Numbered from the stretch's first letter, positions 5,830 through 50,957 are shown. The stretch is 50,957 nt of DNA from Squatina squatina (GCA_031763465.1 JARFOE010000203.1:5727725-5778681); one strand, 5' to 3'. Notes: generated by a model not told the origin, from the sequence alone. A program made the numbers and translations.

Positions 5830-8072
5830 TTAATTTGCAATTAAAGTAAATGGATATTTCACCAGATTCCTCAACTGCTTCCTGAACTTAGTTTGTTTCA
5901 CAGCATAAATGCAAGTATTTGTGCAGCAACTCAGGAGCTGGAGCATGAATCCTATTTCCATTACATAACCAGGTAGATTTACAGACCTATCCCCTAAACG
6001 CCACACACGGCTCCATGTTGAATACATCATGAGCACCAACCATAAGAGTATGAAATTTCCTGAAATAAAAAACAGTAAAATGATGGATTTCCTCCGGCTC
6101 TCGATCTCTGGATCTCTTGGACTTTCACCACTTCTGGGACCTCGGAATCTCCTCCGAGCTCTGCTGGCCAATAAAATGTGTCTGACGGTTACAGCATTGA
6201 GCAGCAGAATTAGGACAAATGGGACACATGGTGTGAAAATATGATGAAGAAACTCGATTGCTGACCAGACGGGTGAAAATTGGATATCGAATAGTGCATA
6301 ACAAAACCAGGGAGTGTTCAAAAATTAATATCTACCTGTCAACATAAAATACCAGAAAATGTTCTTCAAACAGCTCAGAACAGTCACTATTCCCAGAATG
6401 AAAGCTGCAGTTGTCTCGGTGCAATATATAGTTTTCAGCTTTTGGCAACAAATGGCAACAAATCTGTTTAAGGTGAAAGTGACGGTGAACCAGACAGAAC
6501 AGTCTGTGGCTGCATAAAGCAGGACGGCGTGGATATTACACACATGGATAGAATTTAAGAAATAAAACTGCTCCCGGTAAACAAGCGGAATCTGCCTCAA
6601 TATCAGGTCAAGGATAACAACCTGTAGATCCTCCGCTGCCATGGCCACCAGGTAACGAGTGATACATTTGGAGAGACCGCACTTTCCCCGAGAAAGAATC
6701 ACAATCGTCACTGAGTTAACTGTGTGGAAGGGAAATAAACAGGGAAATTATTCATGAGGCTTGGAGCAAGAACAGCAGTTTGATGGAATTCTGCAACTCA
6801 TTACCGACATTCATTGATATCATCAATTCTATGACGTGTGGAGTTGAATACTGTGTTTATTATAATCAGGAATGTACTGTGGAATCAATGAAAAATAATA
6901 AATAGAAAATGCAGTGAACAGGTGTTTGATCACTGAGAAAGTAAGTGAGAGATCTGCCTTTTGCCCAGCAGACAAAAGCACCACCTGAGCTCCCAGGGAC
7001 ACAATGGAAGGCTTCGTGTCCCAGGAAAGTTCAGCAGTTGGACCGGTGCAATTCTCTTCTGTGCTCCCAGGTTAGGGAGCGGGGAATCCCATTTTAGATC
7101 ATGCTCCTGGTTAGAATATCCATTATAGTTAGAACTGAGCATGAATACAACAGCAAAATACAGAAAGTGCAACCTTGATGGGCAACAATTACAGGCAATT
7201 GAGTTTACAATGCACGGACATGGTTTGCAAATGGTAAGATCAGAAATAAAAGTGCACCGCAGTTAGACAGCTAACCTGGTCGGGCGAAGAGATTTGAATA
7301 ATTAGCTTATTCAAATTTTGTTAAAATACAGAAATAACATTATTAAGAATGGACATTGGATTAAAACAAATAGTTATCTTTCTCCAGGTAATGTCCCACT
7401 AAATGCAGTTCTTCACATTGAAATTAGAGGAATCATCCAAAAGGCATTGTGCCACAGATTGTTTTAGTAAAGTATCTGAACAGGAATTGGAGAGATTTAT
7501 CCTTGAAACCTTTCACCTGTTGGTTTCCATCTTGTTTAGGGAATCAGATGGAAACGCCGAAGAGGATTTTCTTATCTGCAGTATTTTAGTTACAATTACT
7601 TGGGATAGCTGGAGCACAGCAGGAGGCAATAGGTATGTTGTCTGCCAGAATTTGTTCCTGCGACTCTGTGTAAATAACCATACTGAGCAATAGGTGAAAA
7701 CAAATGCAATATAAAATGGATGCTGCAAATCTCAAATAAGATCAGAAAATGTTGGAAATACTTATCATGTCAAGCAGCATCAGAGTGGAGAGAATCAGAT
7801 TTAATCTTCCAGTTCGATGTCTTTCCAACATTTGGTGAAAAACTCATAAACCAAGGGAAGATTCTCCTTATTTTTTACACATGACCAGAGCAAGAATAAT
7901 ATTGCACAGCAATACGTTTTATAGAATTAATTAATAGACATAGATACTTACTAGGAACAGCAACTGCAGCGAGGAAGGGATAGTAAATCTTTTGTATGCA
8001 CAAAATTATCTCCACAATCCGCAAGACTTGACTCAAATTATCAAGAATGGGTGGTGCGGGGGGTGGACCCAT
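5830..8072 (-). pseudogene. GPR139/GPR142-like class A GPCR, two exons (8072-7952 and 6719-5830), with an in-frame stop
   Basis: Exon 1 MGPPP...QKIYYPFLAAVAVP ends at a gtaagt donor (phase 1). Exon 2 follows ccacacag and reads INSVTIVILSRGKCGLSKCITRYLVAMAA...CSVWFTVTFTLNRFVAIC...MLQLLSCCTNTCIYAV. A TAA at 6325-6327 separates two in-frame ORFs, and DRF is altered to NRF. Confidence 0.85.
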
Positions 8073-8689: not shown

Positions 8690-10365
8690 TCAGGATAGGT
8701 ACATCGTACAGATTAAACCTCCCTCTATCATCTCCCATCAAATACTCACAGGTCTGGTACAGCATGTGTCAGGTTCAGAGTAAATCTCCATCAAAACTAT
8801 CCCATCAAACACTCCCAGGGCAGGTACATCTCAGGTGAGACTCAGATTAAACCTCTCACTATATTGTCCAATTAAACACAGCCAGGGCAGTTACAGCATG
8901 GATTAGGTAGAAATAACACTCCCATGAACTGTCCCATCAAACACTCCGAGTGCTGGTATAGCACGGGTCATGTACAGTGTAAATCTCCCTCTACACTGTT
9001 CCATCAAACACGCTCAGGTCAGGTGCAACACATGTCATATATAGAGTATACCTCCCGCTATACTCGCCCATTAAACACTCACAGGGCTGGTACACGCACG
9101 AGCAATCTGCAGAGCAAATCTCCCTCTGCACTGTCAGGTGCAGCTCGGGATAGATTGGGAGAAGATTTCCCTCCACATCCTCCCATTAAACATTCACAGG
9201 GCTGGTACAGCAAAGACAAAGTACAGAATAAATATTCCTGCGCACTGCACCATCAAACTGTACCTGCACATGTACAGCACTGTTTAGATACAGAGTACAC
9301 TTCCCTCTGCACTGTCCGATCAAACACTCACAGGGCAGGTACAGCACGAGTTCGGTACAGTGTAAATGTCTCTCTAAATTGTCCCAGCATAGTCTCACAA
9401 TGCTGGTACGGTACTGTTGTGTGGAGTGTAAATCTCCCTCCATACTGCCATGAATCACACCCAGGGTTCAAAAGGCGCTGGTAAGGCTCAGATTAAAGCT
9501 TACTATAAATCTCCCTCTAAACTGTCCCATCTCACTCTCACAGTACTGGCACAGCAGGTGTTCGGCCCAGTGTACACACTCTACACTGAACATTATACAC
9601 ACCCAGGGCTTTTTCAGCACGGGTTCGGCACAGAGTAAAGCTCCCTCCAAAGTGACCTATCAAAAACTTATAGTGCCCGTACAGCAAAGATTAGTTACAG
9701 AGTTAAGCTCACTCTACATTCTCCATCAAACACAAGCAGGAAAGTAAACACACTGGTTACACATAGAATAAACCTAACTCTACACTGACCTATCAAATGC
9801 GCACAGGTCTGTAACAGCACAGATTAGGTGCAGAATAAATTTCCCTCTGCAGTGGCCCAGAAAACAATCCTGGGGCCAGGTACAAAACAGCTGAGATACA
9901 GATAGAAGCTGCTTCTATATTGTTGCAATACTCCCACCCATGGCTGACACAGCACGGGGTGGTACACAGTAAATCTCTCTCCAAATTGTCCCATCAATCA
10001 TTCCCAGGGCAGGTACAGCACGAGTTCGGAAAGAGTAAATTTACCTCCACATTGACACATCAAAAACTCCCAGGCCAGGCACAGCATTGCTTAAACACAG
10101 ACTAAATCTCCCTCGACATTGTCCCATCAAATAATCACTGGACTGGCATAGCACGGGTTAGGTAATGAGTTAATCTATACTGCCCATGGCACACAGCCAG
10201 GGCAGTTAAAACACAGGGTTTGGTAAAGATTGAAAATTACTTTACACGGTGCCATCAACCACTCACAGGGCTGTTACAGCACGGGTTAGTAAATGAGGAA
10301 ACCTCCCACTACATTGTCCCATCAAAAAAATCCCAGAGCTGGTAACGAACGGCGTGTTAAAGAGG
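8690..10365 (+). repeat. Diverged ~63 bp satellite array (CTCCCTCTACACTGTCCCATCAAACACTCCCAGGGCAGGTACAGCACGGGTTAGATACAGAGTAAA)
   Basis: Roughly 25 degenerate tandem copies; the same family is in reverse orientation at 16750-17275 and 27300-27790. Confidence 0.85.
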
Positions 10366-10665: not shown

Positions 10666-11371
10666 TGATGCTCAATCAAATAACCTGATCTGTAAAATCG
10701 CTTTTTACACACTGTGCATTCAAACGGTTTCTCTCCGGTGTGAATTTTCTGATGCTGCGTCAAGAGGCTGGATGTATAAAATCGCTTTTTACACACGGCA
10801 CATTCAAACGGTTTCTCTTCAGCGTGAATTTGTTGATGCTGGATCAAGTTACTGGACGTGTGAAATCTCTTCTTACACACTGGACATTCAAACGGTTTCT
10901 CTCCTGTGTGAATTCGCTGATGTTTGCTCAGGTCACAAGACCTGTAAAATTTCTTTGTGCACACAGTACACTCAAACGGTTTCTCCCCGGTGTGAATTTT
11001 CTGATGCTGGATCAAGTTGCTGGACGTGTGAAATCTCTTCTTACACACTGTACATTCAAATGGTTTCTCTCCTGTGTGAAATCGTTGATGTTTGGTCACT
11101 TCACTGGATGTGTAAAATCGCATTTTACACACAGTACATTCAAACGGCTTCTCTCCAGTGTGAACACGCAGGTGTGTGTCCAACAGGCTGGGCCAGCGGA
11201 ATCCTTTTCCACACACACTGCATTGTAAGGCGTCCACTCCTCGATTGCCAGATGCCCGCTGATTGGATCCAGCTGCTTCAGATGAGCTGCACCCACCATG
11301 CATTAACATTTCAGTTTCTTTCTTTATTTCCATGCTGACCCTTCGTTCCAAAGTGTACGAGCACAGACTGT
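10666..11371 (-). CDS. C2H2 (Kruppel-type) zinc-finger protein exon with 6 complete fingers and 1 cut by a gap
   Basis: Repeated CxxC-x12-HxxxH with TGEKPFEC linkers in an open frame; probable acceptor ttgtttggtag ending at 11372. Confidence 0.9.
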
Positions 11372-11612: not shown

Positions 11613-12300
11613 GGGAGACTACTCGACGAAGGCTTTACCCAGCCAACAGGGTCTACAGGCCTAGAGTCACTTTCCTGGAACTGTCTGAGGAAGAGTGCAT
11701 GAGGAGGCTGCGCTTCTCCAGACAGGCTGTCACTGACCTGTGCAGCCTCCTGCAACAAGACTTAATGCCTGCTGGTCCAGGGGGGCATGCTCTGCCCGTG
11801 GCAGTGAAAGTCACCACCGCCCTTAACTTTTTTGCTTCAGGCTCCTTCCAGGGTGCCGCAGGTGACATTTCTCACATCAGTCAGTCTGCAGTTCATAAAT
11901 GCATAAAACAGGTCACCAATGCCCTCTTTGCCAGGGCCAACGACTACATCTGTTTTCCAATGGATGCCAACAGTCAGAATGAAAGGGCAGTGGGATTTGC
12001 TGCAGTGGCTGGCTTCCCTCGAGTGCAGGGGGTCATAGATTGCACACATATTGCCATCAAGGCACCTGACAATCAGCCAGCAGCCTTTAACAGGAAAGGT
12101 TATTATTCTATCAATGTGCAGTTGGTCTGTGATCACCACCACAGGATCATGCAGGTGTGTGCCCGGTTTCCAGGCAGCTGTCACGATGCCTTCATTCTGC
12201 ACCAGTCAACCATCCCCCCACTATTCCACTCGTGTCAGAACTTCAAAGGCTGGCTGATAGGAGACAAGGACTACCCCCTCCACACATGGCTCATGACACC
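11613..12300 (+). mobile_element. PIF/Harbinger transposase (HARBI1-like DDE nuclease), partial and bounded by gaps
   Basis: Open frame with ALNFFASGSFQ, ISQS, GFPRVQGVIDCTH, NRKGYYSINVQLVCD, FPGSCHDAFIL and WLIGDKDYP motifs. Confidence 0.9.
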
Positions 12301-15786: not shown

Positions 15787-16400
15787 TCTGTTCTGAATCT
15801 GTCCCATTTAGCACGGTGGTAGTGCCACACAACACGATGGAGGGTGTCCTCGGTGTGAAGACGCGACTTTGTCTCCACAATGACTGTGCGGTGGTCACTG
15901 CTACCAATGCTGTCATGGACAGATGCTTCTGCTACCAGTAGATTGGTGAGGACAAGGGTCAAGCAGGTTTTTCCCTCGTGTTGGTTCTTTGACCACCTGT
16001 CGCAGCCTCTGTCCGGCAGCAACGTCCTTCAGGACATGACCAGTTCGGTCAGTAGTGGTGCTATCGAGGTGATAGGTGGTAATCAGCAGGAGGTTTCCTT
16101 GCCCGTGCTTGACCTGAAGCCATGAGATTTCATGGGGGCCAGAGTCATTGTTGAGGTCTGACTGTATACCACTGTGCTGCCTCCTCGGCTGGGTCAATCC
16201 TGACGTTGGGCAGAGACATCCTCAGGGATGGTGATGGAGGAGTCTGGGACATTAGCTGAAAGGTGTGATTCTGTGTCAGGCTGTTGCGTGACTAGTCTGT
16301 GGGACATCGCTCCCAATTTTGGCACAAGTCCCTAGATGTTGGTGAGGAGGGTTTTGCAGGGTCGACTGGGCTGGGTGTGCTGTTTTTGATTCCGTAGCCG
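15787..16400 (-). mobile_element. LINE (CR1-group) endonuclease fragment
   Basis: LRQVVKEPTRGKNLLD and IGSSDHRTV, which are AP-endonuclease motifs. Confidence 0.75.
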
Positions 16401-16749
16401 GTGCCATGTGATCCGTCCAGTTTATTCTTATTTTGAAGCAATTGTGGACAACTGAGTGGCTTGCTAGGCCATTTCAGAGGGCAGATAAAAGTCAACCACA
16501 TTGCTGTGGGTCTGGAGTCACATATAGGCCAGACTAGGTAAGGATGGCAGATTCCCTTCCCGAAAGGGCATTACAACAATCCGATTGTTTTAATGTCACC
16601 ATTGCTGACACGAGCTTTTTTATTCCAGATTATTTAATTAACTGAATTTAAATTCCACAGCTGATGTGGTGGGATTTGAACTCACATCTCTGGATCAATA
16701 GTCCAAGACTCTGGATTATTAGTTAACCACTACGCTACCGAGTCCCCAT

Positions 16750-17275
16750 GTGTAGAGGGAGCTTTACTCTGTATCTTTCCTCTGCTGGACCTGTCCTTGG
16801 AGTGTTTGAGGGGACAGTGTCGAGGGAGTTTTAATGTGTATGTTTCCACTGCTGGACTTGACCTGGGAGTGTCTGATGGGACTGTGCGGAGGGTGCTTTA
16901 CTCTGTATCGAACCCGTGTGTACCTGCCCTGGGAGTGTTTGATGGGGCCAGAGTAGAGAATGCTTTATTATGTATCTAACCCGTGATGCACCTGCCCTGG
17001 GTATGTTTGGGGAAAGAAAGGGAGCTTTACTCTGCATCTAAACCCGTGCTGTCCCTTCCCTGGGAGTGTTTGATAGGACAGTGTCGAGGGAGCTTTACTC
17101 TGTATCTAACACGTATTCAACCTGCCCTGGGAGTAGTTGACGGGACAGTGTAGAAGGAGCTTTACTTTGTATCTAACCCCATGCTGTACCTACCCTGGGA
17201 GTAGTTGACGGGACAGTTTAGAGGGAGCTTTACTCTACCTAACCCGTCCCGTGCTGTGCCTGCCCTGGGAGTATT
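16750..17275 (-). repeat. ~63 bp satellite array in reverse orientation
   Basis: Repeated TGCCCTGGGAGTGTTTGATGGGACAGTGTAGAGGGAGCTTTACTCTGTATCTAACCC. Confidence 0.88.
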
Positions 17276-17429
17276 TCCCAACCTCTTTTCCCCCTCTCTC
17301 CCCCTCCGCCTCTCTCCCCCATTATCCTTTGTGTTAAGTGCTTCCTCACATCTGTGTGTGTGTGTTTCTGTATGTCTGAGCCTGTGATTCTGCATGTGTG
17401 GTTCTGTGTGTCTATAACCTGACACAGTG

Positions 17430-18660
17430 AACCCTGTCCAACAAAAATCTCTCAATCTGAGTTTGAATTTTACTATTGGGCTCCGGCCTCAACAGCTTTT
17501 TTTGGCAGAGAGTTCCTGATTTCTGCTACCCTTTGTGTGAATAAGTGCTTCCTGACATCACCCCTGAACGGCCCAACTTTAATTTTAATGGTATGCCCCC
17601 TTGTTCTGGACTCTCCCACCAGATGAAATAGTATCTCTCCCTCATCTTAAACACTTCAATGATATCGCCTTTAATTTTCTATATTCAGGTTGATAAACTC
17701 AGGAACAGAAATGGTCTGGAGCGGGGATGGGAGACAGTAACAGTGGTAATGTCAGTGTAAGGTAGGGGGAGCTCTGTATTGAACCTGCCTGTGAGGGCTC
17801 GATGCTGATACTCTGTATAAAGCAGAGGTTGGAACACAGCAGACCATTCCGCCCCTTGAGCCTGTCACCCCATTCAGTGAGATCAGGGTTGATCTGTATT
17901 TTAGCTCCAGCCACCTGACTTGGCTTCCTATCCTTTTAGACCCTTGCCTGGCAAAAAAAGCTATTCATCTCAGATTTAAAATCATTAATTGTGCCAGCAT
18001 TTACTGCTTTTTGTGGGAGAGAGTTCCACACTTCCACCACCCTTTGTGTGGAGAAATGTTTCCGAACATCTCTCCTGAATGGCCTGGCTTTGAAATTAAG
18101 ATTATGTCCCCTTGTCCTGGACTCCTCCACCAGTGGAAGAAGGTTCTCTCTATCCACCAGCTCCTTTCAACATCCTAAAATCCCCAAGCAAATTAAATCA
18201 TCCCTTAACCTCCTATGTTGTAAGGAATACAAACCCAGTTTATGTAATCTCTCATATTCCTGGAACTCCGTCCCTAGCAGCACTGTGGGAGGACCTTCAC
18301 CACACGGACTGCAGCGGTTCAAGCAGGAGGCTCACCACCAGCTTCTCGAGGGCAATTAAGGATGGGCAATAAATGGCAGCCTTGTCAGCGACGCCCACAT
18401 CCCAGGAACAAATACAATAAATAATTGAACCCTCGGGAGCCCTGGTAACATTCTGGTGAATCTGTGCTGCGCTCCCTCCAAGGCCAGTATATCCTACCTG
18501 AGGTGCGGTGCCCAGAACTGAAGGCAGTTCTCCAGATGGGGTCTTTTCAGAGCTCTGTGCAGCTGAAGCACCAACAATCTATTAGCTGTTTAATTATTTT
18601 TGTACCTGTCGACATTTCCACTGATTTAAGTAGTTGGACCCCTACATCTCTCTGCTCATC
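17430..18660 (-). mobile_element. Several CR1 LINE 3' fragments
   Basis: For example ESRTRGHNLNFKARPFRRDVRKHFSTQRVVEVWNSLP (17936-18157). Confidence 0.8.
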
Positions 18661-18923
18661 CTGGTCCTGGTGTCTAGTCAGTTTGAGGTCTGTGTGCGCG
18701 TCTATCTGTCTGAGTGTGTCTGTCTGCCGATCTGTGTGCATGTCTGTGTTCCATCTTCTTGTTCTTTTCCTTTTGAAATGCTGTTCGGTACCAATGTGTG
18801 GTACTTCCCCAGAAAGTGCTGATTTATTTGTTTAAATTGTTGCATGATAATTAATTTGATTCTGGTGTTTAAGAGCAGCAAACAACTCCTGCAACTCAGC
18901 AACTGATTCTCTGTTTGGAATAG

Positions 18924-19018
18924 TTCACCATTCGGTGACTGCTCCAACTTGCCCTCCGTGTCGGTCTGTCCCACTGTCCTTTCCCGGTGGGTTCGGATGG
19001 TGCAGACCGGAACAGTGA
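18924..19018 (+). pseudogene. Decayed beta-defensin exon 2 (paralog of 26711-26830)
   Basis: Ends FPGGFGWCRPEQ* versus CRGETGCCRPKQ* in the intact copy (C to F, C to W). The 5' part reads PFGDCSNLPSV, then shifts frame into CRSV. It is followed by a near-identical 3' UTR and AATAAA. No exon 1 was found. Confidence 0.7.
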
Positions 19019-19527
19019 AAGATCCAGTGAGGGATTTCCCCTAGCCCGAGCTCTCCACCTTCTCACTGAATGAAACCTCCGCTCACAGGAAGCAGGCTCT
19101 GTTTGATTGTTTAGGTCCTGTAATCCCTGACCCTGTGTTACTGCTGTCTGAATAATGGGCTGTGCTCAGAAATAAAACTCTCTGCATTGATCACAGCTTC
19201 ACCTCCGTGTCTTGTTTCTCCTTCAGGGTCAGTGTGTCCGAGGACAAGGTGTTTGGGGGGTGGAACGAGGCTGGGAGAAGATTTGGGAATCGCAGGAAAT
19301 GAGAAGAGCAAACCGCTGCAGGGAATCTCTGCAAGTGCCGAATAACACATTCAGAAAGATACTGAGGTAAGACCGGTGTCCCAGAATGTCAGCACTGTGG
19401 CTGTTCGGGGTTCAAGATATCTCAGTTGAACAGGTTTCTTTAGGCAGATTGGAAATAGACATCCATTGCATCAAACCCACAGACAGTTTGATGGGACAGT
19501 GTAGAGGGAGATTGACTCTATCTGATC
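18990..19527 (+). repeat. Local duplication, copy A (copy B at about 26802-27345)
   Basis: The defensin C-terminus, 3' UTR, polyA signal, downstream flank and satellite start align directly by eye. Confidence 0.9.
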
Positions 19528-20075
19528 TGTGCTTCCTCTATCGCATTTTTTCTCTCTTTCGCTATCTGCCTCATTTTATATCCGTCTCTCTGCTTCAACT
19601 CGCTCTGTGTCACTCTCCCCTCTTTGTTTCTTTCACTGGCTCTATCTCTCCTCGCCTCTTTTTCTCTCACTCTCTCACTCACCTTTGCTCTCTCTCTCTC
19701 TCCTCTCTACCGGTCTCATTTTTCTCTGCCTCGCTGTCTCTCGCTCTTTCTGCCTTTCTCTCCGCCTCGCTCTCAGTCCACCTCTCTCTACATCTATTGA
19801 GCCTTTGTCTTCTCTCTGCTTATTTCTCTCTCTCGCTCACTATCTTAGCCACTATCTCGTCTTTCCCTCCTCTGCCTCATTCTCTCTCTCCCTCTCTCTC
19901 CCTCTCCAGTCGCTCTGTTAATCATTTATTTTACAGTTGGTTTCCTTTCTGCCCATCTTTCTGTCACTCTTTTCTCACTCTACCACTCTTTCTCCCCTCT
20001 GTCTTTGATTCCTCTCTCTGCCCCTGTCTCTCTCCCAGTTTCTTTCCCTCTCCCTCTCCCTCTCCCTCTCCAAGA
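19528..20075. repeat. CT-rich low-complexity tract
   Basis: Degenerate (CT)n; it produces spurious Leu/Ser ORFs. Confidence 0.85.
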
Positions 20076-20559
20076 TTCCTGATGTAACAGGACTGTTCAA
20101 ACACAACACAGGCCCATCCTGTACTCCAAACACATTGCAGGAGCTGACCACAACTTCTACACCCTTAGTTTTAAAATGAGCTGTCCAGGATGTGCCAGGC
20201 CCCACCAGGGGCCTGCAAGATTTCGCTGTTTACCTAGAGGGAAGCTTGCTTTAGGTTCTAACCTCTGCCTCCAAATCTCATCCAGCTCCATTCCTGAGCT
20301 CATTTTATTACATTTCATCGTCCAGTGACCTCTCCACCCGCTTATGTCCACATTGTCTCCGATGTGCTCCGCTCTGTAAATCTATTGGGTCTTGTTTTTC
20401 CTTATTATTGACAGTCTGTTTCTTCAATTTAATCTGTTTGGTCATTTGGTACAATTTTGAGGAATTGGCCAGCGATTCCTGCTGATCTGCTGAGTGTATT
20501 TCCATATAGGGCACAGATCTCTCTGCGGGGCAGGGTTAAAATAATGCTAAAACAGTTAT

Positions 20560-23070
20560 TCTACAGAATGTATTGGAGGGAACATATTTTAGTAAATCTA
20601 TAAAATAAGTAAAATAATCGTGGGACATTTCAGTGACAAGAAATGTTCTGGCCAGAGGTCGGGAAAGGGGAAAAGGGAATGGAGAATTTACAGTGTGTTC
20701 AGGACTCCTTTCTCACCCAGTGTGTAAGAAGCTCAGTGCGAGAGGAATCACTGCTTGATCTATAATGGGGAATCAACCAGAGCAGATCAAAGATGCTCAA
20801 CTGAAAATCTCGCCTTTATCAATCACAACATATTGAGGTGATGAAAATGGAACTGGGGAAGATAAACTGGAACAGAATATTGACCGAGATAGAACAGCAG
20901 TGGGAAATATTTAAAAAGGTGACCAATAGAGTTCAGGAGAAATATATTCTACTTAACAAACGAGGCAATAATGAAACATCATTGATGAATAAAGAGAAAA
21001 GGGCAAGATTGAAACTGAGGAACAAGGCAGACACGGAGTACAGTGACAGTAAAGGAGAGGATGACAAAGGGAATAGGAAGAGGTTAGCAAAGAATTAGAG
21101 AAATTACATTAAACTTGTACAGAACCTTGGTTAGACCACACGTGGAGCACTGTGTAGAGTCCTGGTTTCCTAATTACAAAAGGAGACCAAGGCACTGTTG
21201 TAGGTGCAACAAAGATTGAAAAGTATGATACCAGAACTGCGGGGTTATAAGTATCCAGAATGATTAAACCTGCTGGGGCTCCTATGTCTAGAGAAGAGAA
21301 GGCTGAGTGGTGATGTAATAGAGATCTTGATGGGGCAGGTGTAGAGAATATGTTACCACTTGTGGACAGTTCAAAACTAGGATTCATAAATATAAGATCG
21401 TCATTAATAAATACAATAAGGAATTCAGGAGAAACCTCTTTACCCAGACATTCCAATTCTGGGCACCACACTTTAGGAAGGGCGGGAAGGCATTGGAGAG
21501 GGTACAGAAGAGATTTACTAGAATGGTTCCAGAGTTGAAGGGTTACAGTTACGTGAATAGACTGGCGAAGCTGGAGTCATTCTCCTTCGAGCAGAGAAGG
21601 CTAGGAGGAGATTTGATAGAGGTGCTTAAAATCATGAAGGGCTTAGACAGAGTAAATAAAGAGGAACTGATTCCAATCGCTGACTAGTCAATAACCAGAT
21701 TTAAGGTGATTGGCAAAAGAACTTGAGGTGACATGAAGAAAACTTGTCAATGCCACACATTGCTAGGATTTGGAATGCACTGCCTGTCCGGGTGCTGGAT
21801 GCAGATTCAATGGTAACTTTCAAATGGCAATTGGATAAAAACTTGAAGGGAGAAGAAATTGCAGGGATATGGGGAAAGAACCAGGGGAGTGAACTAACTG
21901 GATTGCTCTTCGAAAGAGCCGGCACAGAATCGATGGGTCGAATGGCCTCCTTGTGTGCTGTATTGTTCTTTGATTCTATGATCGTAAACACCTTAATTAA
22001 TCCTTTGTGTCAGGGAATACTTACCTAGTCTGTACAAGGTGCCCTCATAATGGAGCCCTTTTAGCTCCGGGGTCATTCTGGTGAATGTGCACTGCACCCA
22101 CTCCAAGCCCAATATATCCTTCCTGAGATGCGGTGCCCAGACTGAATGCAGTTCTCTAGGTGGGGTCTAACCAGAGCTCTGGACAGCTGAAGCTTCACTT
22201 CATCCCCTTTGTATTCCAGCCCTCTTGAGATACAGACTCACATTCCATTAGACTTTTTCATTATTTTTTGTACCTGTCCATTATAATTTTGTGATTCCTG
22301 TACTCGGACACGTAAATCTCTCTGGTCATCCACAGTTCCTATCCTATCGATGTTTCGAGAAGTGGACGTGTGTTTATGTATGTATGTGTGGGTTGTCTGT
22401 CGATATTGGATGAAGGCAGCAAGTGCTTTGTAGCCACATTTGGTGATGATACAAAGATATCATTTCTGGAGTAAGAGAATTTCAAAGCAAAGACGTTCTT
22501 TTAAATTTGTATAGAACCTTGGTTAGACCACACTTGGAGTACTGTGTACAGATCTGGTCTGCATATTAGGAAAAGGATATAGAGACACTGGAGAGGGTGC
22601 AAAATAGATTGACAAAATGATACCAGAACTGGGCGGTTATAAGTAACAAGAATGACTGAACATGCTGGGGCTCGTTTCTCCAAAAAAGAGCAGGCTGAAG
22701 GATAATCTAATGAAGATCTTTCAAATTATGAAGGGGTTTGATAGGGTAGATGTAGAGCAGATGTTGCCATTTGTGGGGAGCCCAAAACTAGGGTCATAAA
22801 TATCTGCAATTACTAATAAATCCACTAAGGAATTCATGAGAAACCTCTTTAACCCAGGGAGTGATTAGAATGTGGAGCTTGTGAGCACATGGAGTAATTG
22901 AAGTGAATGGCAGAGGTCCTTTAAGGAGAAGGTAGATAAGTACATGAGAGAGAAAGGAATAGAAGGATATGATAGGGTGAGGTGAAGTAAGGTAAGAGGA
23001 TGCTCGTGTGGAGCATTAACACCAGAATGGACCTGCTGCGCTGGATCTGTGCTGTAAATACTATGTAATT
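20560..23070. mobile_element. Cluster of nested CR1 LINE fragments, mostly +, one - at about 22000-22350
   Basis: LERVQKRFTRMVPELKGYSYVNRLAKL...RRLGGDLIEVLKIMKG and LVRPH.E motifs recur several times. Confidence 0.8.
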
Positions 23071-23429
23071 GGTTGTTGAGTCAAGACATGGTACAGCACT
23101 CAAAACAATCGTCAGCAATGGGCTGTGTATTGGGGTCAAAACTCCCACCTTTCACCCCTACTGATCTAAAGGACTTGTGTAAAATGAATGTGGGGACTTC
23201 AAACACAGTCCTTGGTGAGGGATCAGATTTGTGTCAAACTGGACCCTAAATTGGCAGACTGACTGTTGCTTGCCGAACAAGTGTCTTGAAAAGACTGTTT
23301 AAACTCTCTCTCTCTCTAACTGATTTCAATCCACCTACAACCGTAACCCTCTCCCTCCAGCTCAGTATGTGTGTGTGTGTCTGACTGTCCGTGCGTATTG
23401 TGTTGTCTGCACATGTTTTTGTGTGTTTC

Positions 23430-24680
23430 TTGGCAGCATGTGCAGATCCCGCATCTATTTTACCCTCTACATTCCGCGCAGTGCCAGTTTCTGAGCTGGT
23501 GTTGCGAGTGTCAGGTACAGTGACGGAGGGCAGTCTTCATCTCCTCTCTCCTCCATTACTTTGGGGACAGGCTGTTTGGGTGGAAGACCTTGGCCATCTG
23601 AAAGCAGAAAGGCACAAGAGTCGGGTTATGGTGAGGGGAGGGAGGAACACGAGATATCCATGTGTGCAGCATCAGCAGCTTGTAAGTGAGAAGATATTGT
23701 GGGGTATCGGGTAAGTGGGATGTGAGAAGGAGGATTAGGAATGAGCCTACCGTTACTGTCCCCAAGGGCTTCAGTTTTCCCGTTCCCACAGCCTCGGTGC
23801 TTTCCCCTCCAATGAGGTCGAACACCGACTCCTCCAGGTGGTAAAGGCCTGTAAAGCGGCTTGGCCGCCTCTACTATGCTGTTGCTCGTGTCGGTTGTGA
23901 GCCACCTTGGCCTGTGAGAGAAAGGGAATTGTGTCAGTGAGGGTAGTGAGTGTTTGGCTGATGTCTGTGATAGTTGTACAGCTGTCAGTGTGTGCAAGGT
24001 CTGAGATGTGGGTGTTATTGTTGCAGCACTGGTAAGGCTGCGAGATGAAGTGAATTTGCGATTGTGAGGTCTCTGGTGAAAGGTAGAGACTGTTGGTAGG
24101 TGAGTGATGGGGCTGTGGTGCATTGAGCAGTGTGTAAGGCTTGTGGTGCAGATGGTGGAATGTGGCAATTGCTGAAGCCTTCACTCACCTTGACCTGTCG
24201 TGTGAAGCCATTAAACTTCTTCTGGCACTAGATCCATGTCCGCGGTATGACACCGTTGGTCGTGACACGAAACCATTGACCGTGACGTACCCAGATGTCT
24301 CCTGCCACGGCCTCCTGTCCACTGTCACGACCAAAGACTCCAGAGCTGCATCGGAGTATCTTCGGGCTCGTTCTCTTTGCTGCTGCTGAGCCTTGTGTCC
24401 CAGCAGCAATTCCAGCTCCTACTCCAATGACAATGAGGTGCTGCTGCATCAAAGCACCTCAAGTGTGGATAGTGGAGAAAGACCAGGTCAGACATTACTG
24501 GCCTGGTGAGCAGTAAGCCAATTAGCAGTGCGTTTAGTGAGATCAGCACTACAGTCATATAAGTGAGCGAGCAGCATGAATTTTGCATGTTGCCTGGAAC
24601 ACTTTGAACGGGTCAGATAGCACTGACGCTGATAGTCATGACACTGCAAGTTTTTGCGCAATGTCCAATTCTGAGGCCTT
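23430..24680 (-). mobile_element. Harbinger-type element remnant with a Myb/SANT-like accessory ORF
   Basis: QQQRERARRYSDAALESLVVTVDRR (about 24310-24390) resembles the R..RFS...LE.LV..V..R start of Harbinger Myb/SANT proteins. Boundaries are approximate. Confidence 0.5.
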
Positions 24681-25028
24681 AGATTTGAACACTGAGAGGA
24701 TTTGATGGGCTAAATGTCTTGTTAAGAACATAAGGACATAAGAATTAAGAGCAGTGGTGGGGCATATGGCCCTTCAATCCTGCTCCAGCATTCAAGAAGA
24801 TCACGGATGATCTTCGACCTGAACTCCACTTTCCCGCTCGATTCCCATAATGTTTGTGTACCTGGTCCATCATGCCAGCTGAGCTCCTGTGTTAAAACCT
24901 GGAGTTAGGCCAAAACACACAACCTTGTCTTCTGAAAGATAGAGAACTGCCAACTGATCCATCACACAGAAAGGAAACGCCTTTTCCCAGGATATCGTCA
25001 GAGCAGAGCCACTCCCCGTCTGTGTGAT

Positions 25029-25034
25029 TATAAA
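25029..25034 (+). promoter_or_regulatory. TATA box of the beta-defensin gene
   Basis: TATAAA about 80 nt upstream of the ATG at 25111. Confidence 0.6.
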
Positions 25035-25110
25035 TCCAGCAAACTCTGATTGCAGATTCAGAACATTTCCACTACAGCCACCTGACCCTGACTCAGAAAC
25101 AACACGGAAC

Positions 25111-26830
25111 ATGAATCCTCTAATCTTAATTCTTGGATTTCTGTTGCTGATGAGGCCCACCTCCACTCAAAAGAGGCTCGATGGAGCTCCCGGTCTGAGG
25201 ATCCGAGGAAAAGTAAGTTCTGGTCTGTAAATTTCTCCCATGTCTCCGCAGCCAGTGTTCAGGCAGTTTTATTTTAAAAAGAACAATTCTCTGTTTGAAT
25301 GTCACGGTTTCGTTGGTTGAGTGAAGGTGAAGGTGAGGTTGTAAGAAAGTCTGAAGAATTTACCCTGAACCAGTTCCACAGGTGAATCCCCTGATTGTTT
25401 ACTCTGAGCGGGTAGAGGGAATGGTGGCTCTTGTTTGCTGATCCAAACAGATCAGCAATAAAACCACAAATTACTGATCGGTGCTAAGTGGGCGGATCTC
25501 AGCCGGAGCATTGACCCGGTCGTGAAAGTCTGTAAGTGGCCTCAGTATCCAGTACTACGGAGGGGAAACTCCCAGTCACTGCTCCCGATCACTGCTACCT
25601 GCTGCACAGTGTGAGAGTGCGGACTCTGTGTGAGGACAGGATCGGGAGCTCCTTCAGTCACTTTCCCCCACACCCACTGCCCAGTCTCACAGATGAAGAA
25701 TGGTGAATTGGGAGCGATACTGGAGGTGTGTGTGGAACCGGTCCCCAGACACGAGTCAGCTTTTCATAGCATAACAGGAAATAGGATCAAAGGGGTTTCA
25801 GAACAGGTTTATTTAAATTGCATAATTCTGCAGCTGTCATAGTGATCGGGTTGAGAGAACACGGACTAAGTAGAGGAGACAAGCGGTGAATTGATCCATT
25901 GTCAGTAGCTGGGTGTCAGTTTGGCTCAGTTTGGAAGTTGAGTGAACAAGTTGTGGGTTGATGCCCCACACTGGTACATACAGCCTGGCACTGAGGAAAT
26001 GTTGCACTGTTGGAGGTAAAAATCCAGCACTGGGGGTGTGCTACACTGCTGGAGGTAAAAGCCCAGCACTGGGGGAGTGCTACACTGCTGGAGGTAAAAG
26101 CCCAGCACTGGGGGAGTGCTACACCGCTGGAGGTGTCATGTTATGGATGAAACGTTCAACAGGGACCCGCTTTACCTGTTCATGGGGCAGGAAACATGTG
26201 GTGACATTATTTGAAGAGCTGGGAGTTCTCCTAGTGTCTTGGACCAACCTCACTCCCTCAACCAACATGACCAGAAACTCCCCATCCTGTCAAATCCCAT
26301 TTGCTGTTTATGGGACTTTGCTGTGAGCCAATTGGCGGCCGCGTTTGCTACAGAACAGTGTCGTCACTTCAGAAACATCCGCTGTTTGTGAAACTCTTTG
26401 GGTCTTCTGGTGCCGGGAAAGGTTCTACATCAATGTCAGATCCTTCCTCTCCATGTCTCTGGTCTCAGATAGCGGGTGTGGGGGCTCCATTCGGAGGGAA
26501 CCCCCTTGGGCTGCCCTTCAGGACGAAGAGTGAGTCTGTGCAGGTCGGGGGAGGGGGAGCGGTGCGGGCTTTCATTAATATAAAAGGGTTAAGGTCCGTG
26601 TGTGGTCCAGAGTCAGTCCCAGTAACACTGACAGACTCAGCTTCATGTTTTCTCATTGTTCTCCCTCCCTCTGTGTACAGAACCATAAATCAATTCATTC
26701 TTCATTCTAGATTATAGGGCGCTGTGAGTCGTATAAAGGAATGTGTCGCGTCAACTGTAACGCAGATGAGGTGTCTTCCCTCGGCCTATTCTGCCGCGGT
26801 GAAACCGGATGTTGCAGACCGAAACAGTGA
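25111..26830 (+). CDS. Beta-defensin precursor, 2 exons (25111-25212, 26711-26830), 73 aa
   Basis: Exon 1 MNPLILILGFLLLMRPTSTQKRLDGAPGLRIRGK has a hydrophobic signal peptide and ends at a gtaagt donor (phase 0). Exon 2 follows ttcattctag and reads IIGRCESYKGMCRVNCNADEVSSLGLFCRGETGCCRPKQ*, with six cysteines spaced C-X6-C-X3-C-X11-C-X5-CC and G-X-C before Cys2. There is a TATA box upstream and AATAAA downstream. Confidence 0.88.
25930..26445 (+). mobile_element. SINE (probably DeuSINE/L2-tailed type) in the defensin intron, with an internal ~39 bp tandem repeat
   Basis: The tail TTGCTGTTTATGGGACTTTGCTGTG...AATTGGC is shared with other copies in the window (about 3100-3240 and 31550-31670, reverse). 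The unit CAGCACTGGGGGAGTGCTACACTGCTGGAGGTAAAAGCC occurs about 3-4 times. Confidence 0.55.
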
Positions 26831-26982
26831 AAGATCCAGTGATGGATTCCCTCCAGCCCGAGCTCTCCACCTTCTCACTGAATGAAACCTCCGCTCACGG
26901 GAAGCAGGCTCTGTTTGATTGTTTAGGTCCTGTAACCCCTGACCCTGTGTTACTGCTGTCTGAATAATGGGCTGTACTCAGA

Positions 26983-26988
26983 AATAAA
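26983..26988 (+). terminator. Polyadenylation signal of the beta-defensin gene
   Basis: AATAAA about 150 nt after the stop; conserved in the paralog at 19171-19176. Confidence 0.7.
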
Positions 26989-27299
26989 ACTCACTGCATT
27001 GATCACAGCTTAACATCCGTGTCTTGTTTCCCTTCAGGATCAGTGTGTCCGAGGACAAGGTGTTCGGGGGGTGGAATGAGGCTGGGAGAAGAGGTGGGGA
27101 ATTACAGGAAATGGGAAGAGGAACCCGCTGCAGGGAATTCCAAATAGTCTAAATTCCAATAACACATTCGGAAAGGTACTGGGATAACACTGGTGTCCCA
27201 GAGTGTCAGCACTCTGACTGTTCGGGGTTCAGAGGAGCTGAAGGCATTTCTTCAGGCAGATTGGAAGCAGACATAAATTGCATCAGACCCACAGACCTT

Positions 27300-27790
27300 T
27301 TGATGTGACAGTACAGAGGGAGATTTACTCTGTATCTAACCTGTACTATATCTACCCTTGGGAATATTTGATTGGACAGTGTAGAGGGAGCTTTACACTG
27401 TATCTAACCCATGCTATACCTGCCCTGGGAGTGTTTGATGGGACAGTGTAGAGGGAGTTTTACTCTGTATCTAACCCCGTGCTGTACATGCCCTGGGAGT
27501 GTTTGATGGGACAGTGTAGAGGGAGCTTTACCCTGTATCTATCCCGTGCTGTACCTGCCCTGGGAGTGTTTGATGGGACAGTGTAGAGGGAGTTTTACTC
27601 TGTATCTAACCCCGTGCTGTTCCTGCCCTGGGAGTGTTTGATGGGATAGTGTGGAGGGAGCATTACTCTGTATCTAACCCGTGCTGTACCTGTCCTGGGA
27701 GTGTTTGATGGGACAGTGTGGAGGGAGCTTTACCCTGTATCTACCCCGTGCTGTACCTGCCCTGGGAGTGTTTGATGGGACAGTGTAGAG
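27300..27790 (-). repeat. ~63 bp satellite array with homogeneous copies
   Basis: About 8 near-identical units of the same family as 8690-10365. Confidence 0.92.
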
Positions 27791-28224
27791 CAGGGTGGCC
27801 AGTATTTGGGCTGGAGGGCCATTTAACCAGTTTCGGTGAGTTGTTGAGGGTCACACACCAGTGTTCCCCCTGAGGGGCGGGGCCGGGCGGTCACGGACCA
27901 ATCCCGAGGTCACGTGCAGGAGGCTCAATAACGACACACAAATAAAATAGATTGTGATTCCAGCAACCATTCAAATTTGTTCTGGCATTTATTGTAAAAT
28001 GAGCCCCTCATGTCGTTTTCACACTTAATAAAAATAACAACACTTACGAACAGGCTGATGAACATGATGTAGGTTTACGAGTCACATTGAAAGGTGCACG
28101 GTCTGTTTATTCCAAATAGTCTGAATTCATTCTTACAGTGGAAAATGAGAGATCGATTCTGCTTCCACTGGCAATTCTAAACCAGTTATAAATCAAGGAT
28201 AATACCATTTATACACCATTTATC

Positions 28225-28515
28225 CAGGGGGCACAGTCTCAGGATAAGGGGTCGGCCATTTAAGACAGAGATGAGGAGGAATTCCTTCACTCAGGGGTTT
28301 GTGAATCTTTGGAATTCTTTACCCCAGAGGACTGTGGATGCTGAATCTCTGAGTATATTAAAGACTGTGACAGACAGATTGTTGGACTCCAGGGGAATCA
28401 AGGGATATGGAGATCAGGCGGGCTAGTGGAGTAGAGGTCGATGATCAGCCATGATCTTATTGAATGGTGGAGCAGGCTCGAGGGTTCGACTCCTGCTCCT
28501 ATTTCTTATGTTCTT
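28225..28515 (+). mobile_element. CR1 LINE 3' end
   Basis: RGHSLRIRGRPFKTEMRRNSFTQGFVNLWNSLP. Confidence 0.8.
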
Positions 28516-28539
28516 TAAAAACTGCACATAAACGTACAA

Positions 28540-29219
28540 TGTTTTGCTTTTTCTCTCTGTCTCACTTCATTTCTTTCTGTCTTTCTGCCAACGTTATTCT
28601 CTTCTTTTTCTCTCCCTGCTCTCTTTCTCTGTGGAGGTCTCTCTCTCCCTTGATCTTGTCTGTATCCCTCTCACTATCCCTCTGTCCTTCCATGTTGTCT
28701 ATCTTTCTCTCCCTCTTGTCTCTGTCCCCTCTCTGTTTCTCGCTCTCTTTATCTCTGAGTCTATTTTTCATCCCGTCAGTCATTCACTCTTTCTCCTGTC
28801 TCTACGCTTCTGTATTGCTGTTTTACTCTGTCCTCCCTATTCTCTCTACTCTGTGATTCTGTGTCTCTCTCCCCTTCTCACTCAGATTTCTCTGTCGCTC
28901 ACTCTCACTCTGTGTCTGTTTGTCCCTCTTTCCTTCTCTCTGCCCTGCTTTCACTCTGATTTACTCTCTGTTTCTCCATCTTGCACTCTGTCTCTCTCAT
29001 TGTCTACCCCTGTTACACTCGCACTCTCTTTCAGTCCCATTTCTCTCACTATCTTTCTGTTCTCTGTGCCCTCGCTCTGCTTTCTATCTGTTTCTCTCTG
29101 TGCCTATCTGTCTCCCATCTCTTGTCTTTCTCTCTCTCTCTAACTGTCGCTCCGTCCCTCCAGCTTGTCTATCTTTCTATCGCTCTTGTCCCTCTCCCTT
29201 CTCTCCCATTCTCCTGCTG
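28540..29219. repeat. CT-rich low-complexity tract
   Basis: Degenerate (CT)n; positional counterpart of 19528-20075. Confidence 0.85.
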
Positions 29220-42733: not shown

Positions 42734-42982
42734 CTTTGGGCTCCGGGGTCCCGCCCGACAGGTTCTTCCAAACATTTAAATTCTGTTTCATGATGGCGAT
42801 ATTGCTGGAGATCCCCGCCTCTCCACCCTGTATTGTGTGGCCCTGGAACTCGGGGATCCGCGGCACCTCCTTCTTCAGGTTGAAATCCATGTAGAGAACC
42901 TCATCCCCGTCCAGCTCCAGATCGAACTGCTTGTTGGGGCTGCGCTCCTGCACCATGTAGACCTGGAACTCTCGGTGCAGGT
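42734..42982 (-). CDS. MHC class II alpha chain, exon 2 (alpha-1 peptide-binding domain)
   Basis: ctctcccag|...|gtaag around a 249-nt phase 1-1 exon reading LHREFQVYMVQERSPNKQFDLELDGDEVLYMDFNLKKEVPRIPEFQGHTIQGGEAGISSNIAIMKQNLNVWKNLSGGTPEPK. It has the DGDE.Y.DF..K..V.R.PEF signature and an NLS glycosylation site, and closely resembles shark class II alpha as I recall it. Confidence 0.95.
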
Positions 42983-43704
42983 CTGGGAGAGAGAGAGAGC
43001 GAGCCAGTCAGGACCAAACCAACTGCACCTCACTGACAGCATTCACCCAGGGAGGAAACGTATTTATATTAAACCTGGAAAAACGCAGATATTTTAACAG
43101 GAATAAACAAGATATTAACCCAGGATAAACCAGATATTGTACAGAGATGGACTGAAATATTAAACAAATAGAATCTGGAATGTACACCAAATGAAAATCA
43201 TCCAATGTTAATATAATAACCTTCCGAGTTATTTTTCTGATATATTGACCCTTAACCTTTATTGTGCGCGAATGGCCAAAGTACCTCTGAAATCCTGAAA
43301 GTTGCGAGGTCAAAGTTACACAAGTCAAGAGTACCACTGATTAAACTCTATTTTGTTCTATTTTGTGTAAGTGTTTAACCAGATGGCCAGGACATTACTC
43401 GGCTTCAACAATATAGTTACAACCTGCACTGATGTATTTTACTTTTATTCTCATGAAACGTGCCAAACTATTTTACAGAGGTGAAAATAAATATAAACCA
43501 AGAAGTGGCAGGAAAGCAATTAAGGCTGGTGACTGACACCAAGAGGGAGGTTTCCAGGAGACTTCTAAAATGGGAGGAGAGGTAGGAAAGGCACACAGGT
43601 TTGGAGATAGAAGTTCCATAATGTGGGGCCAAGACAGCTAAAGGCAAATTAAATAGATTTCTTTCAGCAAATAACATCTTTGGGATACAGTATTAGGGAC
43701 ATAT

Positions 43705-47943: not shown

Positions 47944-50033
47944 CTAACCAGAGTCAGAATCACTGGTGTCTGATGAACTCGATCCACTGGAAGTGCTACT
48001 AGTGTCAGATCCTGAAGAACTACTGCTGCTGGCACTGAGCCGCGAAGGGCCCACTGGCTGAACAGGATCCGGCTTTTCAGTTGCTGCAAAGAGAAATCTT
48101 ATTAAAGTATTGTTTCTCACAAGTGGTTTGAAAAGGTACACAAATTTTTACCATCTAACAAGCCTGGCTGAACACTTAAGCTCCNNNNNNNNNNNNNNNN
48201 NNNNNNNNNNNNNNNNNNNNNNNNNNNNNNNNNNNNNNNNNNNNNNNNNNNNNNNNNNNNNNNNNNNNNNNNNNNNNNNNNNNNNNNNNNNNNNNNNNNN
48301 NNNNNNNNNNNNNNNNNNNNNNNNNNNNNNNNNNNNNNNNNNNNNNNNNNNNNNNNNNNNNNNNNNNNNNNNNNNNNNNNNNNNNNNNNNNNNNNNNNNN
48401 NNNNNNNNNNNNNNNNNNNNNNNNNNNNNNNNNNNNNNNNNNNNNNNNNNNNNNNNNNNNNNNNNNNNNNNNNNNNNNNNNNNNNNNNNNNNNNNNNNNN
48501 NNNNNNNNNNNNNNNNNNNNNNNNNNNNNNNNNNNNNNNNNNNNNNNNNNNNNNNNNNNNNNNNNNNNNNNNNNNNNNNNNNNNNNNNNNNNNNNNNNNN
48601 NNNNNNNNNNNNNNNNNNNNNNNNNNNNNNNNNNNNNNNNNNNNNNNNNNNNNNNNNNNNNNNNNNNNNNNNNNNNNNNNNNNNNNNNNNNNNNNNNNNN
48701 NNNNNNNNNNNNNNCTGCCCGCTCACATCCTGCAGCCGTTTTTCTAACTCTTTCTTCTTCTCCAGAGCCAATTCTTCCTTGGACTTCCCTGCTTGTTTCT
48801 TTGCTGTAGGATTAATGCAGTAGCAGTTAGTAAAGTGACTTCCCAATTTGGGCAGACTGAAAGGGACAGGAGTGGGAACCAAAACCTCGCAGTGTCAAGA
48901 CATACCCCCTCCCAACAGGCTCCACACAAGCCTCCTCCCACAACCTCTTCATCTAACCCGATCAGCATATCCTTTTGTCCTCGTGTTTTTCTAGCATCCT
49001 CTTGAATGTATCTACGCTAGAATCTTTTTTGAATTTTGAGGGGATAACAACTTTATCAAGTGCAGGTGGTGCATAGGTTAATTACATTTTCATACCCTAC
49101 ACATGGGTAAAGGAGGTTCACATGAACAGATGAGTTTAATGGACATCCCCAAAATGCTTTTTCTTACCCAAGTTAGACCAGACAGAATTTCCCCTTTGGG
49201 CATCTGCTTCAAATCTGCAGTCAGTCTTTCTGGTCAGCAATGTTGACAGTTAATCATACTGTGGGAATTTGGGGCATAAATTACAACCCCAACACGAGCA
49301 AGGGCTTCCTACTTACACTGNNNNNNNNNNNNNNNNNNNNNNNNNNNNNNNNNNNNNNNNNNNNNNNNNNNNNNNNNNNNNNNNNNNNNNNNNNNNNNNN
49401 NNNNNNNNNNNNNNNNNNNNCTTACACTGGTCAATATTTACACCAGCTCCCATCCAACAAGGATTCCTGCACATGACAGTCTGTTTCACACAGAGCCCAC
49501 TCTACTGGCTGTTTCTGACACCAAAAAAGATTATCCCTACCCAACAGGCCACTGGTCCTAAATTGTAAGTATAAAGCACAAGCTAGCTAGGAGACCAATC
49601 ACAACATTTCATATTTTTAGGCTTAATCATTTTCTGACTACACAAAAGATGGATTAAATGAACACAGGCCCCAGAATAGCAGAACACATTACAACTGCCC
49701 ATCCTGTACACTTCAGACTTACAGTAAGGTTTGCGAGGTTTCTTCCGTAAGCAGGACATAACATAGCGTTCAAGCTCCCGAAGGGTGGAGGGTTTAAGAG
49801 TTTCAAAGTCTATCTCAATCTCATCGGGATTGGAGTCCCGAAGGGATGGCTCTCGGGATTGGATGATATGTACCACACGGCCTAGTTTGTCACCAGGCAG
49901 TTTATTAATGTCCAAGCTCAACTGTCGCTTCTCGTCATAAGTCATGGGCCTGCAGTTATCTTCTTCTTCTGAATCATAGCCAGGAGGGGGTGGTGGTGGT
50001 GGTGGGGGAGGTTGTTTCACCTTCTTGGACTGC
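47944..50033 (-). CDS. BRD2: Bromodomain-containing protein 2 (RING3), last three coding exons: 50033-49723 (ET domain), 48803-<48715 (cut by a gap), 48083-47944
   Basis: ET domain [27 protein letters not shown]...[17 protein letters not shown], then [22 protein letters not shown], and a terminal [11 protein letters not shown]. The LRKKPRKPY and DTSDSDSG endings fit BRD2 better than BRD3 or BRD4. Splice sites are canonical. Confidence 0.9.
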
Positions 50034-50957
50034 CTGCAAAGAGTAAACCCAAAAGTAAAAGGAAGCAGGCTCTACTGGGAAGCAAATGCACAATTCTTGA
50101 TCCCTAAACACCATCTATAAAGAACCTTTTAGAGAGAGAGTGTTCCATTGCAATTCAGTCACTGTCACCATCAGACATTTTTGGCTTCAAAATATATTCT
50201 GACTTCAAAATATATTTACACCCTTCATAGCATGCATATGCTGGAGTACATCATTGGATTAAGTATACACCGCCATGAGAATTCAGAAAGACCTAACACA
50301 CTTCAAAATATGAATAAAGAGCATTGAACTACAGCAAAGTTCAAAAATCAAACATTTGAGGCAAAGAATTAACATTTTCCAAAATAAATAGAGCAGCAAA
50401 AAAAAGTGTTCTCGAAGCCTTGCTTTACATACTGGATATTTCACACAATTCCGCATTCATCAAAGGCTTTCTGCACCTCAAGCTTCACCCTTCATTCTTC
50501 CACACCAGTTACCTTCATAGCTCTGCCATTCATAAAAACATAGATAGAAACATATTCAATATGATCATGGCTGATCATCTAAATTCAGTACCCTGTTCCN
50601 NNNNNNNNNTATTGCCAGATCTAACATCTTGCTCAGGTCTGTAGACTTAACTATTTAGAATTCTATCTGTAACTCTCAATTTCCCAGACCAACAATACAA
50701 AAACAAAACACTGCAGATGCTGGAAATCTGAAATAGAAACAGAAAATGCTGGAAACACTCAGCAGGTCAGGCAACACCTGTGGAGAGAGAAACCGAGTTA
50801 ACGTTTCAGATCGATGACCTATCATCAAAACTGGAAAATGTTAGAGATGTAACAGATTTTAAGCAGGTACAGAGGCAGGGAAAGGGGGCAGGGGAGGAAA
50901 GAACAAAAGGGAAGATCTGTGATAGGGTGGAAGGCAGGAGAGATTAAATGACTAAAG

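Follow-up and report, generated by a model that had tools for sequence, protein, structure and literature searches.

A 3' cassette shared by a predicted beta-defensin-like gene and a probably dead upstream copy in Squatina squatina

Introduction

The beta-defensin fold is a three-stranded sheet with C1-C5, C2-C4 and C3-C6 disulfides. Here we examine two loci in a stretch of Squatina squatina DNA (JARFOE010000203.1:5727725-5778681), the whole 50,957 nucleotides (nt) of which we call the window, with coordinates counted from its first letter: a downstream, predicted defensin-like gene and an upstream locus that carries the same 3' end. An earlier note on this DNA had taken the upstream locus for a tandem duplicate of the defensin, with a near-identical 3' untranslated region (UTR) and a highly diverged, broken peptide exon. 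Beta-defensins have been described as spreading from teleosts to mammals (PMC7203481; here and for every other paper cited, our statements concern the part of the text available to us). The available part of a review of shark antimicrobials lists no beta-defensin (PMC6795676), and a search of titles and abstract openings, with most subscription fish-immunology journals outside its scope, found no report of a shark beta-defensin. An elasmobranch beta-defensin, if true, would push the family back to the ancestor of jawed vertebrates and reveal an early exon layout.

The downstream gene shares with vertebrate beta-defensins (PF13841 Defensin_beta_2 and PF00711) the spacing C-X6-C-X3-C...C-X5-CC and, as predicted, a signal-peptide-like first exon, and the nearest solved chain to its peptide is human beta-defensin 106 (PDB 2lwl, E 0.22). 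Like mammalian two-exon beta-defensin genes, in which all six cysteines lie in the last exon (PMC11541337), it holds its six in the last exon; teleost beta-defensins are likewise six-cysteine fish host-defense peptides (PMC8231796, PMC11541337), although their genes divide the cysteines 4+2 between exons 2 and 3. The gene departs from vertebrate beta-defensins in a Pfam score below the gathering cut-off (17.5-17.8 bits against 22.2), a longer C3-C4 loop, a long basic pro-piece, an elasmobranch host and a setting in the region of the major histocompatibility complex (MHC). Beta- and big defensins have in common a phase-1 intron 5' of the Cys domain (PMC7203481), whereas a two-exon model of the downstream gene has a phase-0 intron; phase 1 is obtained only with a three-exon model, which needs a candidate middle exon. 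Big defensins, found in molluscs, horseshoe crab and amphioxus, combine that intron with a prodomain bearing a dibasic site (PMC7203481), and the three-exon model yields both. The candidate middle exon is, however, Gly/Pro-rich and 20 residues long, compared to about 40 for the big-defensin hydrophobic domain; Pfam scans of exon 1, the middle exon and the Cys exon as separate pieces gave no match to that domain, and the middle exon had no Pfam match at all.

Sharp similarity boundaries between paralogues also occur among the partial duplicates and converted pseudogenes of primate alpha- and theta-defensins, where they are read as conversion or interlocus recombination (PMC4018336). In those clusters the signal and pro-segment are conserved and the mature exon is alignable, whereas here the 3' end alone is common to the two copies.

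The two loci share a 3' cassette

The 3' UTRs of the two loci are nearly identical, as the earlier note had observed, differing at 10 of 200 positions between 19019-19218 and 26831-27030. The further 300 nt or so of similarity that had been described beyond them is also present, in a blastn block that pairs 18994-19533 with 26806-27347 (86.3% over 549 columns). On the 5' side, the last 25 coding nt (18994-19018) contain two mismatches and the best single change point in identity falls at 18994, which fits the conversion or recombination breakpoint that had been proposed near the CC codons. Similarity had been said to collapse abruptly inside the coding exon; the break at 18994 agrees with this, but a weak shoulder continues beyond it to a second break at 18965 (15 of 29 positions identical, p=0.012). 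Homology is confined to the final 8 to about 17 codons together with the 3' UTR and flank. Within this cassette, the core is 94% identical and its own flank 79%, a contrast reached by none of 500 permutations. There is no third copy anywhere in the window. A test for UTR structure gave z 0.02, and an Rfam scan produced a single sub-threshold small nucleolar RNA match, which we disregarded.

Each copy of the cassette terminates at a 67-bp satellite unit, a possible recombination substrate, and arrays of this satellite flank the region (16750-17276, 27299-27790 and, inverted, 8707-10326).

Sequence 5' of the cassette

No alignable remnant of the whole Cys exon was detected at the upstream copy, where detectable homology begins only at about 18965. 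Compared with the defensin exon, 18880-18964 gave a local score of 13 against a shuffle mean of 14.6, an anchored global p of about 0.1, and p values of 0.2-0.85 under four scoring schemes. Tested against four targets (Cys exon, exon 1, candidate middle exon and intron), sequence 5' of about 18965 did not beat the controls, save in one of three scoring schemes for the intron, and the suggested search for a missing exon 1 found neither it nor an intron paralogue in 17277-18993 or the rest of the window, runs of N beyond 15787 excepted. The idea of a tandem defensin duplicate holds for the shared 3' end and is not borne out for the exon, intron and signal exon 5' of about 18965. A lack of homology 5' of about 18990, which the earlier note had named as what would tell against its own reading, is nearly what we see, with homology fading between about 18965 and 18994.

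The upstream peptide had been reconstructed as PFGD-C-X6-(frameshift)-C, and this we could not sustain: it needs a free frameshift, it has no C3, and it lies where homology to the defensin is not significant. By our own definition of it, the C-X6-(frameshift)-C pattern turns up in 6.2% of random window stretches and in 4.5% of shuffles (20,000 of each). At most three of the six cysteines survive, and only C6 lies within clearly homologous sequence. Since the shoulder at 18965-18993 retains L-x-x-x-G around the C4 position, the accompanying proposals that C4 became F and C5 became W are fair readings.

The acceptor at 18922-18923 scores -0.9, compared to 3.1-8.2 for the sites of the defensin gene (splice scores come from a rough matrix), and the exon-like stretch at 18924-19018 has no match in Pfam or the Atlas. 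When the upstream 52-residue frame was compared with longer proteins, none of nine candidates stood, in a search made weak by the short query. A two-row alignment of both copies, used as a protein query, returned no candidate; with a poor alignment and three shared 5-mers needed, this search was weak as well. Three further identities were tried for 18900-18975 and set aside: derivation from the candidate middle exon with a deletion (p 0.12-0.36), similarity to the first part of the defensin intron, which did not hold across scoring schemes, and an MHC class II alpha tail, for which tblastn with 4 of the 17 shark proteins gave no match.

Contigs from relatives carry the same junction

We aligned contigs from relatives to 18600-19530 at 80% likeness and draw on four of 16 runs, one per organism (A to D). 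The results cover 40 of 132 difference rows, 12 of 24 indel rows and 32 of 4110 pieces, and contig counts serve as a hint only, summed contig depth not being copy number. Five of the 32 listed pieces (X1 records 2 and 3, X6 record 28, and X14 records 9 and 10), from organisms A, C and D, bridge the junction at 18994 with upstream-type sequence on its 5' side. That three further organisms show this bridge leads us to conclude that the junction is old and real and not an assembly error.

A check of raw reads had been advised for the frameshift near 18958-18962; no sequencing run contained more than 6% of the window's words, so single-base errors in the window may persist. Three of the five spanning contigs from relatives are ungapped at the site: X14 record 9, whose two gaps lie at 18930 and 18933, and X1 record 3 and X14 record 10, which have 18-21 letters on the 5' side. 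The other two have gaps at unlisted places: 16 gaps in X1 record 2, and two extra letters in X6 record 28, in whose organism the frameshift may therefore be present. The same record has five listed differences in 18910-19018 and four in 19019-19132, with three unlisted, so the exon-like stretch differs from this relative's copy at about the UTR rate. Codon-position bias is absent in every frame from the eight listed differences in 18936-18986, two or three of which are synonymous; this count partly excluded five further X14 rows and indels at 18930-18940 as poorly aligned. These observations, together with an intron that would be expected to align at 79% flank identity and does not, lend no support to the accelerated evolution of the peptide exon that had been offered as one explanation.

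It had also been suggested that relatives might keep the second defensin intact, yet no listed difference restores C4 or C5 by a Cys at 18981 or 19000. Since weaker-supported rows are listed and still none restores a Cys, we infer that F and W at these positions are common to the relatives, with possible exceptions beyond the listed rows. X14 record 12 and X1 record 4 depart from the window sequence at 18988 and 18997, where the window's own defensin does, and may be orthologues of the downstream gene; two further UTR-sharing pieces depart at 19043 and 19067. At 13 of the 14 listed sites that distinguish the copies, the letter found in relatives is the downstream one, and we therefore regard the upstream copy as the drifting one. 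The contigs hint that the cassette block is multi-copy in relatives, although whether the same copies hold both flanks cannot be read from them. In organism D the flank at 19240-19360 appears to be partly tandem-repeated, with a joint that goes back from 19358 to 19259 in up to 40 contigs.

Origin of the shared tail

The explanation we favor, with moderate confidence, is that the two loci have in common a 3' cassette bounded by a recombination breakpoint, left by an old partial duplication or unequal recombination and preserved by conversion or UTR constraint, and that the upstream copy is probably dead. What the loci share is limited to the final 8-17 beta-defensin-type codons, the 3' UTR including the poly(A) signal and some 250 nt of flanking DNA; the event would have fused these to 5' sequence for which no defensin ancestry can be demonstrated. 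A duplicated intron would align at about 20% neutral divergence, and since it does not, we read the event as a 3'-only duplication or an unequal recombination. Going by the bridging contigs, the junction predates the split of the window's organism from at least three relatives. Later gene conversion or UTR constraint could have kept the core of about 290 nt more alike than the flank. Apparently unable to adopt a defensin fold, lacking a matching signal exon and collecting private changes, the upstream copy is probably a dead fragment. As such, the duplicate would be ordinary multigene-family debris with no evidence in it for accelerated peptide evolution, and its intact downstream neighbor is of greater interest.

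Several observations weigh against this origin. A deeper, decayed homology is possible, in view of the significance of the shoulder that reaches 18965 and of a p of about 0.05 for the C1-C2 pattern. Intron similarity reached a p of about 0.045 in one scoring scheme (0.36-0.6 in two others). In phase 1, which beta-defensins conserve, no stop interrupts the upstream stretch before the shared one, and a missing exon 1 may lie in the runs of N upstream of 15787. The evidence from relatives is, moreover, confined to the rows and pieces given above. Finally, organism B has 3-16 contigs at 18826-18907 and 21-43 at most listed sites from 19037, and only 1-3 at 18950-18982; a hypervariable peptide family would be expected to show just such conserved flanks on either side of a variable middle.

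Under that alternative, the upstream locus would belong to a multi-copy defensin-type family whose intron end and UTR are conserved and whose peptide exon is hypervariable. It would have diverged anciently, lost its cysteines before the sampled species split, and had its 3' end re-homogenized by conversion with its neighbor. We think this unlikely, though with a real chance of being correct. It accords with the dip in contig coverage at 18931-18983, which in organisms B and D separates flanks matched by multiple contigs, with the homology shoulder and the phase-1 frame that reaches the same stop, and with the conversion and pseudogenes reported from primate alpha-defensin clusters (PMC4018336). 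It sits poorly with the lack of significant DNA or protein homology in 18880-18964, with the three contigs that are ungapped at the proposed frameshift, and with the lack of any listed Cys-restoring difference at 18981 or 19000. In addition, the Arg codon after the second Cys (18963), from which the apparent good match arises, differs in three of four relatives, and none of the listed contigs has both flanks around a different middle.

We regard it as very unlikely that the upstream stretch is instead a last exon still in use, one that encodes a cysteine-poor secreted peptide derived from a defensin and is reached by splicing from a signal-like open reading frame at 18740 (donor 18801) into 18924. 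Such a model is in frame with no frameshift needed, the reading frame at 18740 has a hydrophobic core of 2.9, and the stretch is retained at 86-95% in relatives. However, both splice sites score below zero, comparable reading frames occur at 0.28 per kb per strand, and the copies of organisms C and D carry a net +2 nt. Codon-position bias is absent, Atlas recognition 1493 gave no match, and protein relatives were not found. An assembly chimera, in which unrelated sequence would have been attached to a collapsed UTR copy during short-read assembly, is scarcely credible, for although the window holds 29 runs of N, both copies lie within a single N-free stretch (15787-29219), they differ throughout their length, and the junction bridged in three other organisms already contradicts it.

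The downstream defensin-like gene

The downstream gene is predicted to encode a beta-defensin-like six-cysteine peptide, apparently undescribed, on an elasmobranch scaffold that also carries MHC class II alpha and BET exons. Its last exon contains the six-cysteine motif with terminal CC by which beta-defensins are recognized, the sole such motif in the six frames of the window, and none arose in 60 simulated windows. The Atlas placed the Cys exon with beta-defensin clusters at 0.82, which is a lead only. The CpG observed/expected ratio is 1.28 in this exon and 0.35 windowwide, as expected of a constrained or unmethylated exon.

Exon 1 is predicted to have a signal-peptide-like hydrophobic core (score 3.4) and a strong donor. 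A two-exon model with a phase-0 intron gives 73 residues, and a three-exon model through 26469-26529 gives 91, with R-x-K-R ahead of the Cys domain and a phase-1 last intron. Three candidate acceptors lie within 37 nt (26680-26717), and, against both models, the splice models tested show that the top scorer, 26680, runs into a stop codon ahead of the Cys domain; the gene may therefore be partly disabled or alternatively spliced. Judging from the motif and what is known of the family, its product is probably a secreted, protease-matured, three-disulfide, weakly cationic (+2) host-defense peptide, and it may act as vertebrate beta-defensins do, in an antimicrobial or chemotactic role.

A single-sequence structure model of the peptide was too poor for use (predicted local distance difference test 53), and Foldseek with this low-confidence model gave no match. 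No relative of the Cys exon was found by phmmer among 1.84 billion representative proteins, a weak search given the short query; its lone match, a 950-residue repeat protein, was rejected because there was no matched stretch. The protein collection includes annotated shark proteomes. Two DNA patterns had no matches in metagenome contigs. The conserved UTR cassette could be used as a probe for the family in shark genomes, where protein searches fail.

The MHC-region setting

The class II alpha-1 exon in the window (Table 1) has 17 protein matches, 15 of them named shark or ray proteins, at 68-80%. It stands alone, about 7 kb from the BET ET-domain exon; alpha-2 and membrane exons were looked for in the window and none were found, perhaps owing to gaps or a pseudogene. 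In white shark and small-spotted catshark, class II genes lie 3' of BRD2 (PMC10751288), and the order of class II and the BRD2-like exon here is the same. Because nine runs of N separate the cassette copies and defensin-like gene from the class II exon, and alpha-1 is the only class II exon found, the MHC linkage rests on scaffolding. If it holds, an innate effector would be added to the ancestral MHC. The word "defensin" is absent from the available part of that study's text and supplement (PMC10751288), the latter giving locus ids rather than product names.

A broader conjecture, which we consider quite unlikely, is that the MHC class II region of sharks holds an unannotated multi-copy defensin-type family with variable peptide exons, onto which recombination has placed a constant 3' cassette made up of the terminal cysteines, UTR and poly(A) site. 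Its intact member, with a remnant middle exon, a furin-type site and the ancestral phase-1 intron, would be an intermediate of big and beta-defensins.

Table 1. Coordinates of the features discussed in the text
Feature	Coordinates	Strand	Remarks
Left block, intron-end-like, weak AG at 18922-18923	18806..18930	+	Without homology to defensin gene; in several relatives' contigs
Exon-like stretch, 95 nt, open to shared stop in phase 1	18924..19018	+	Three Cys in frame, defensin spacing absent
Weak-homology shoulder to 26777-26805	18965..18993	+	15/29 identical
Cassette core: last 8 codons including stop, 3' UTR, AATAAA at 19171	18994..19281	+	272/288 columns equal to downstream copy
Cassette 3' flank, ending in part of a 67-bp satellite unit	19282..19533	+	162/204 identical up to 19485
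TATA-like box, 82 nt 5' of ATG	25029..25035	+	Seen in sequence
Exon 1, predicted: signal-peptide-like hydrophobic core and basic pro-piece	25111..25212	+	Strong phase-0 donor 25213
Candidate middle exon, 61 nt, Gly/Pro-rich, phase 0 in, phase 1 out	26469..26529	+	Acceptor 4.2, donor 2.9; inferred only
Last coding exon, C-X6-C-X3-C-X11-C-X5-CC	26711..26830	+	Entry 26711 (phase 0) or 26718 (phase 1); PF13841 E 0.0055
Downstream cassette copy, AATAAA at 26983	26806..27347	+	blastn block
MHC class II alpha-1 exon (context)	42735..42983	-	Pfam E 6.6e-16; best matches elasmobranch (80%)
BET-family ET-domain exon (context), BRD2-like by context	49700..50038	-	PF17035 E 2.9e-29

Elsewhere in the window, a rhodopsin-family G protein-coupled receptor fragment lies at 6004-6300 on the minus strand (7tm_1, E 0.0017). 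An 84-bp tandem array at 10690-11164, also on the minus strand, looks C2H2 zinc-finger-like by eye, and the open-looking stretch at 11613-12300 may resemble a Harbinger-type transposase.

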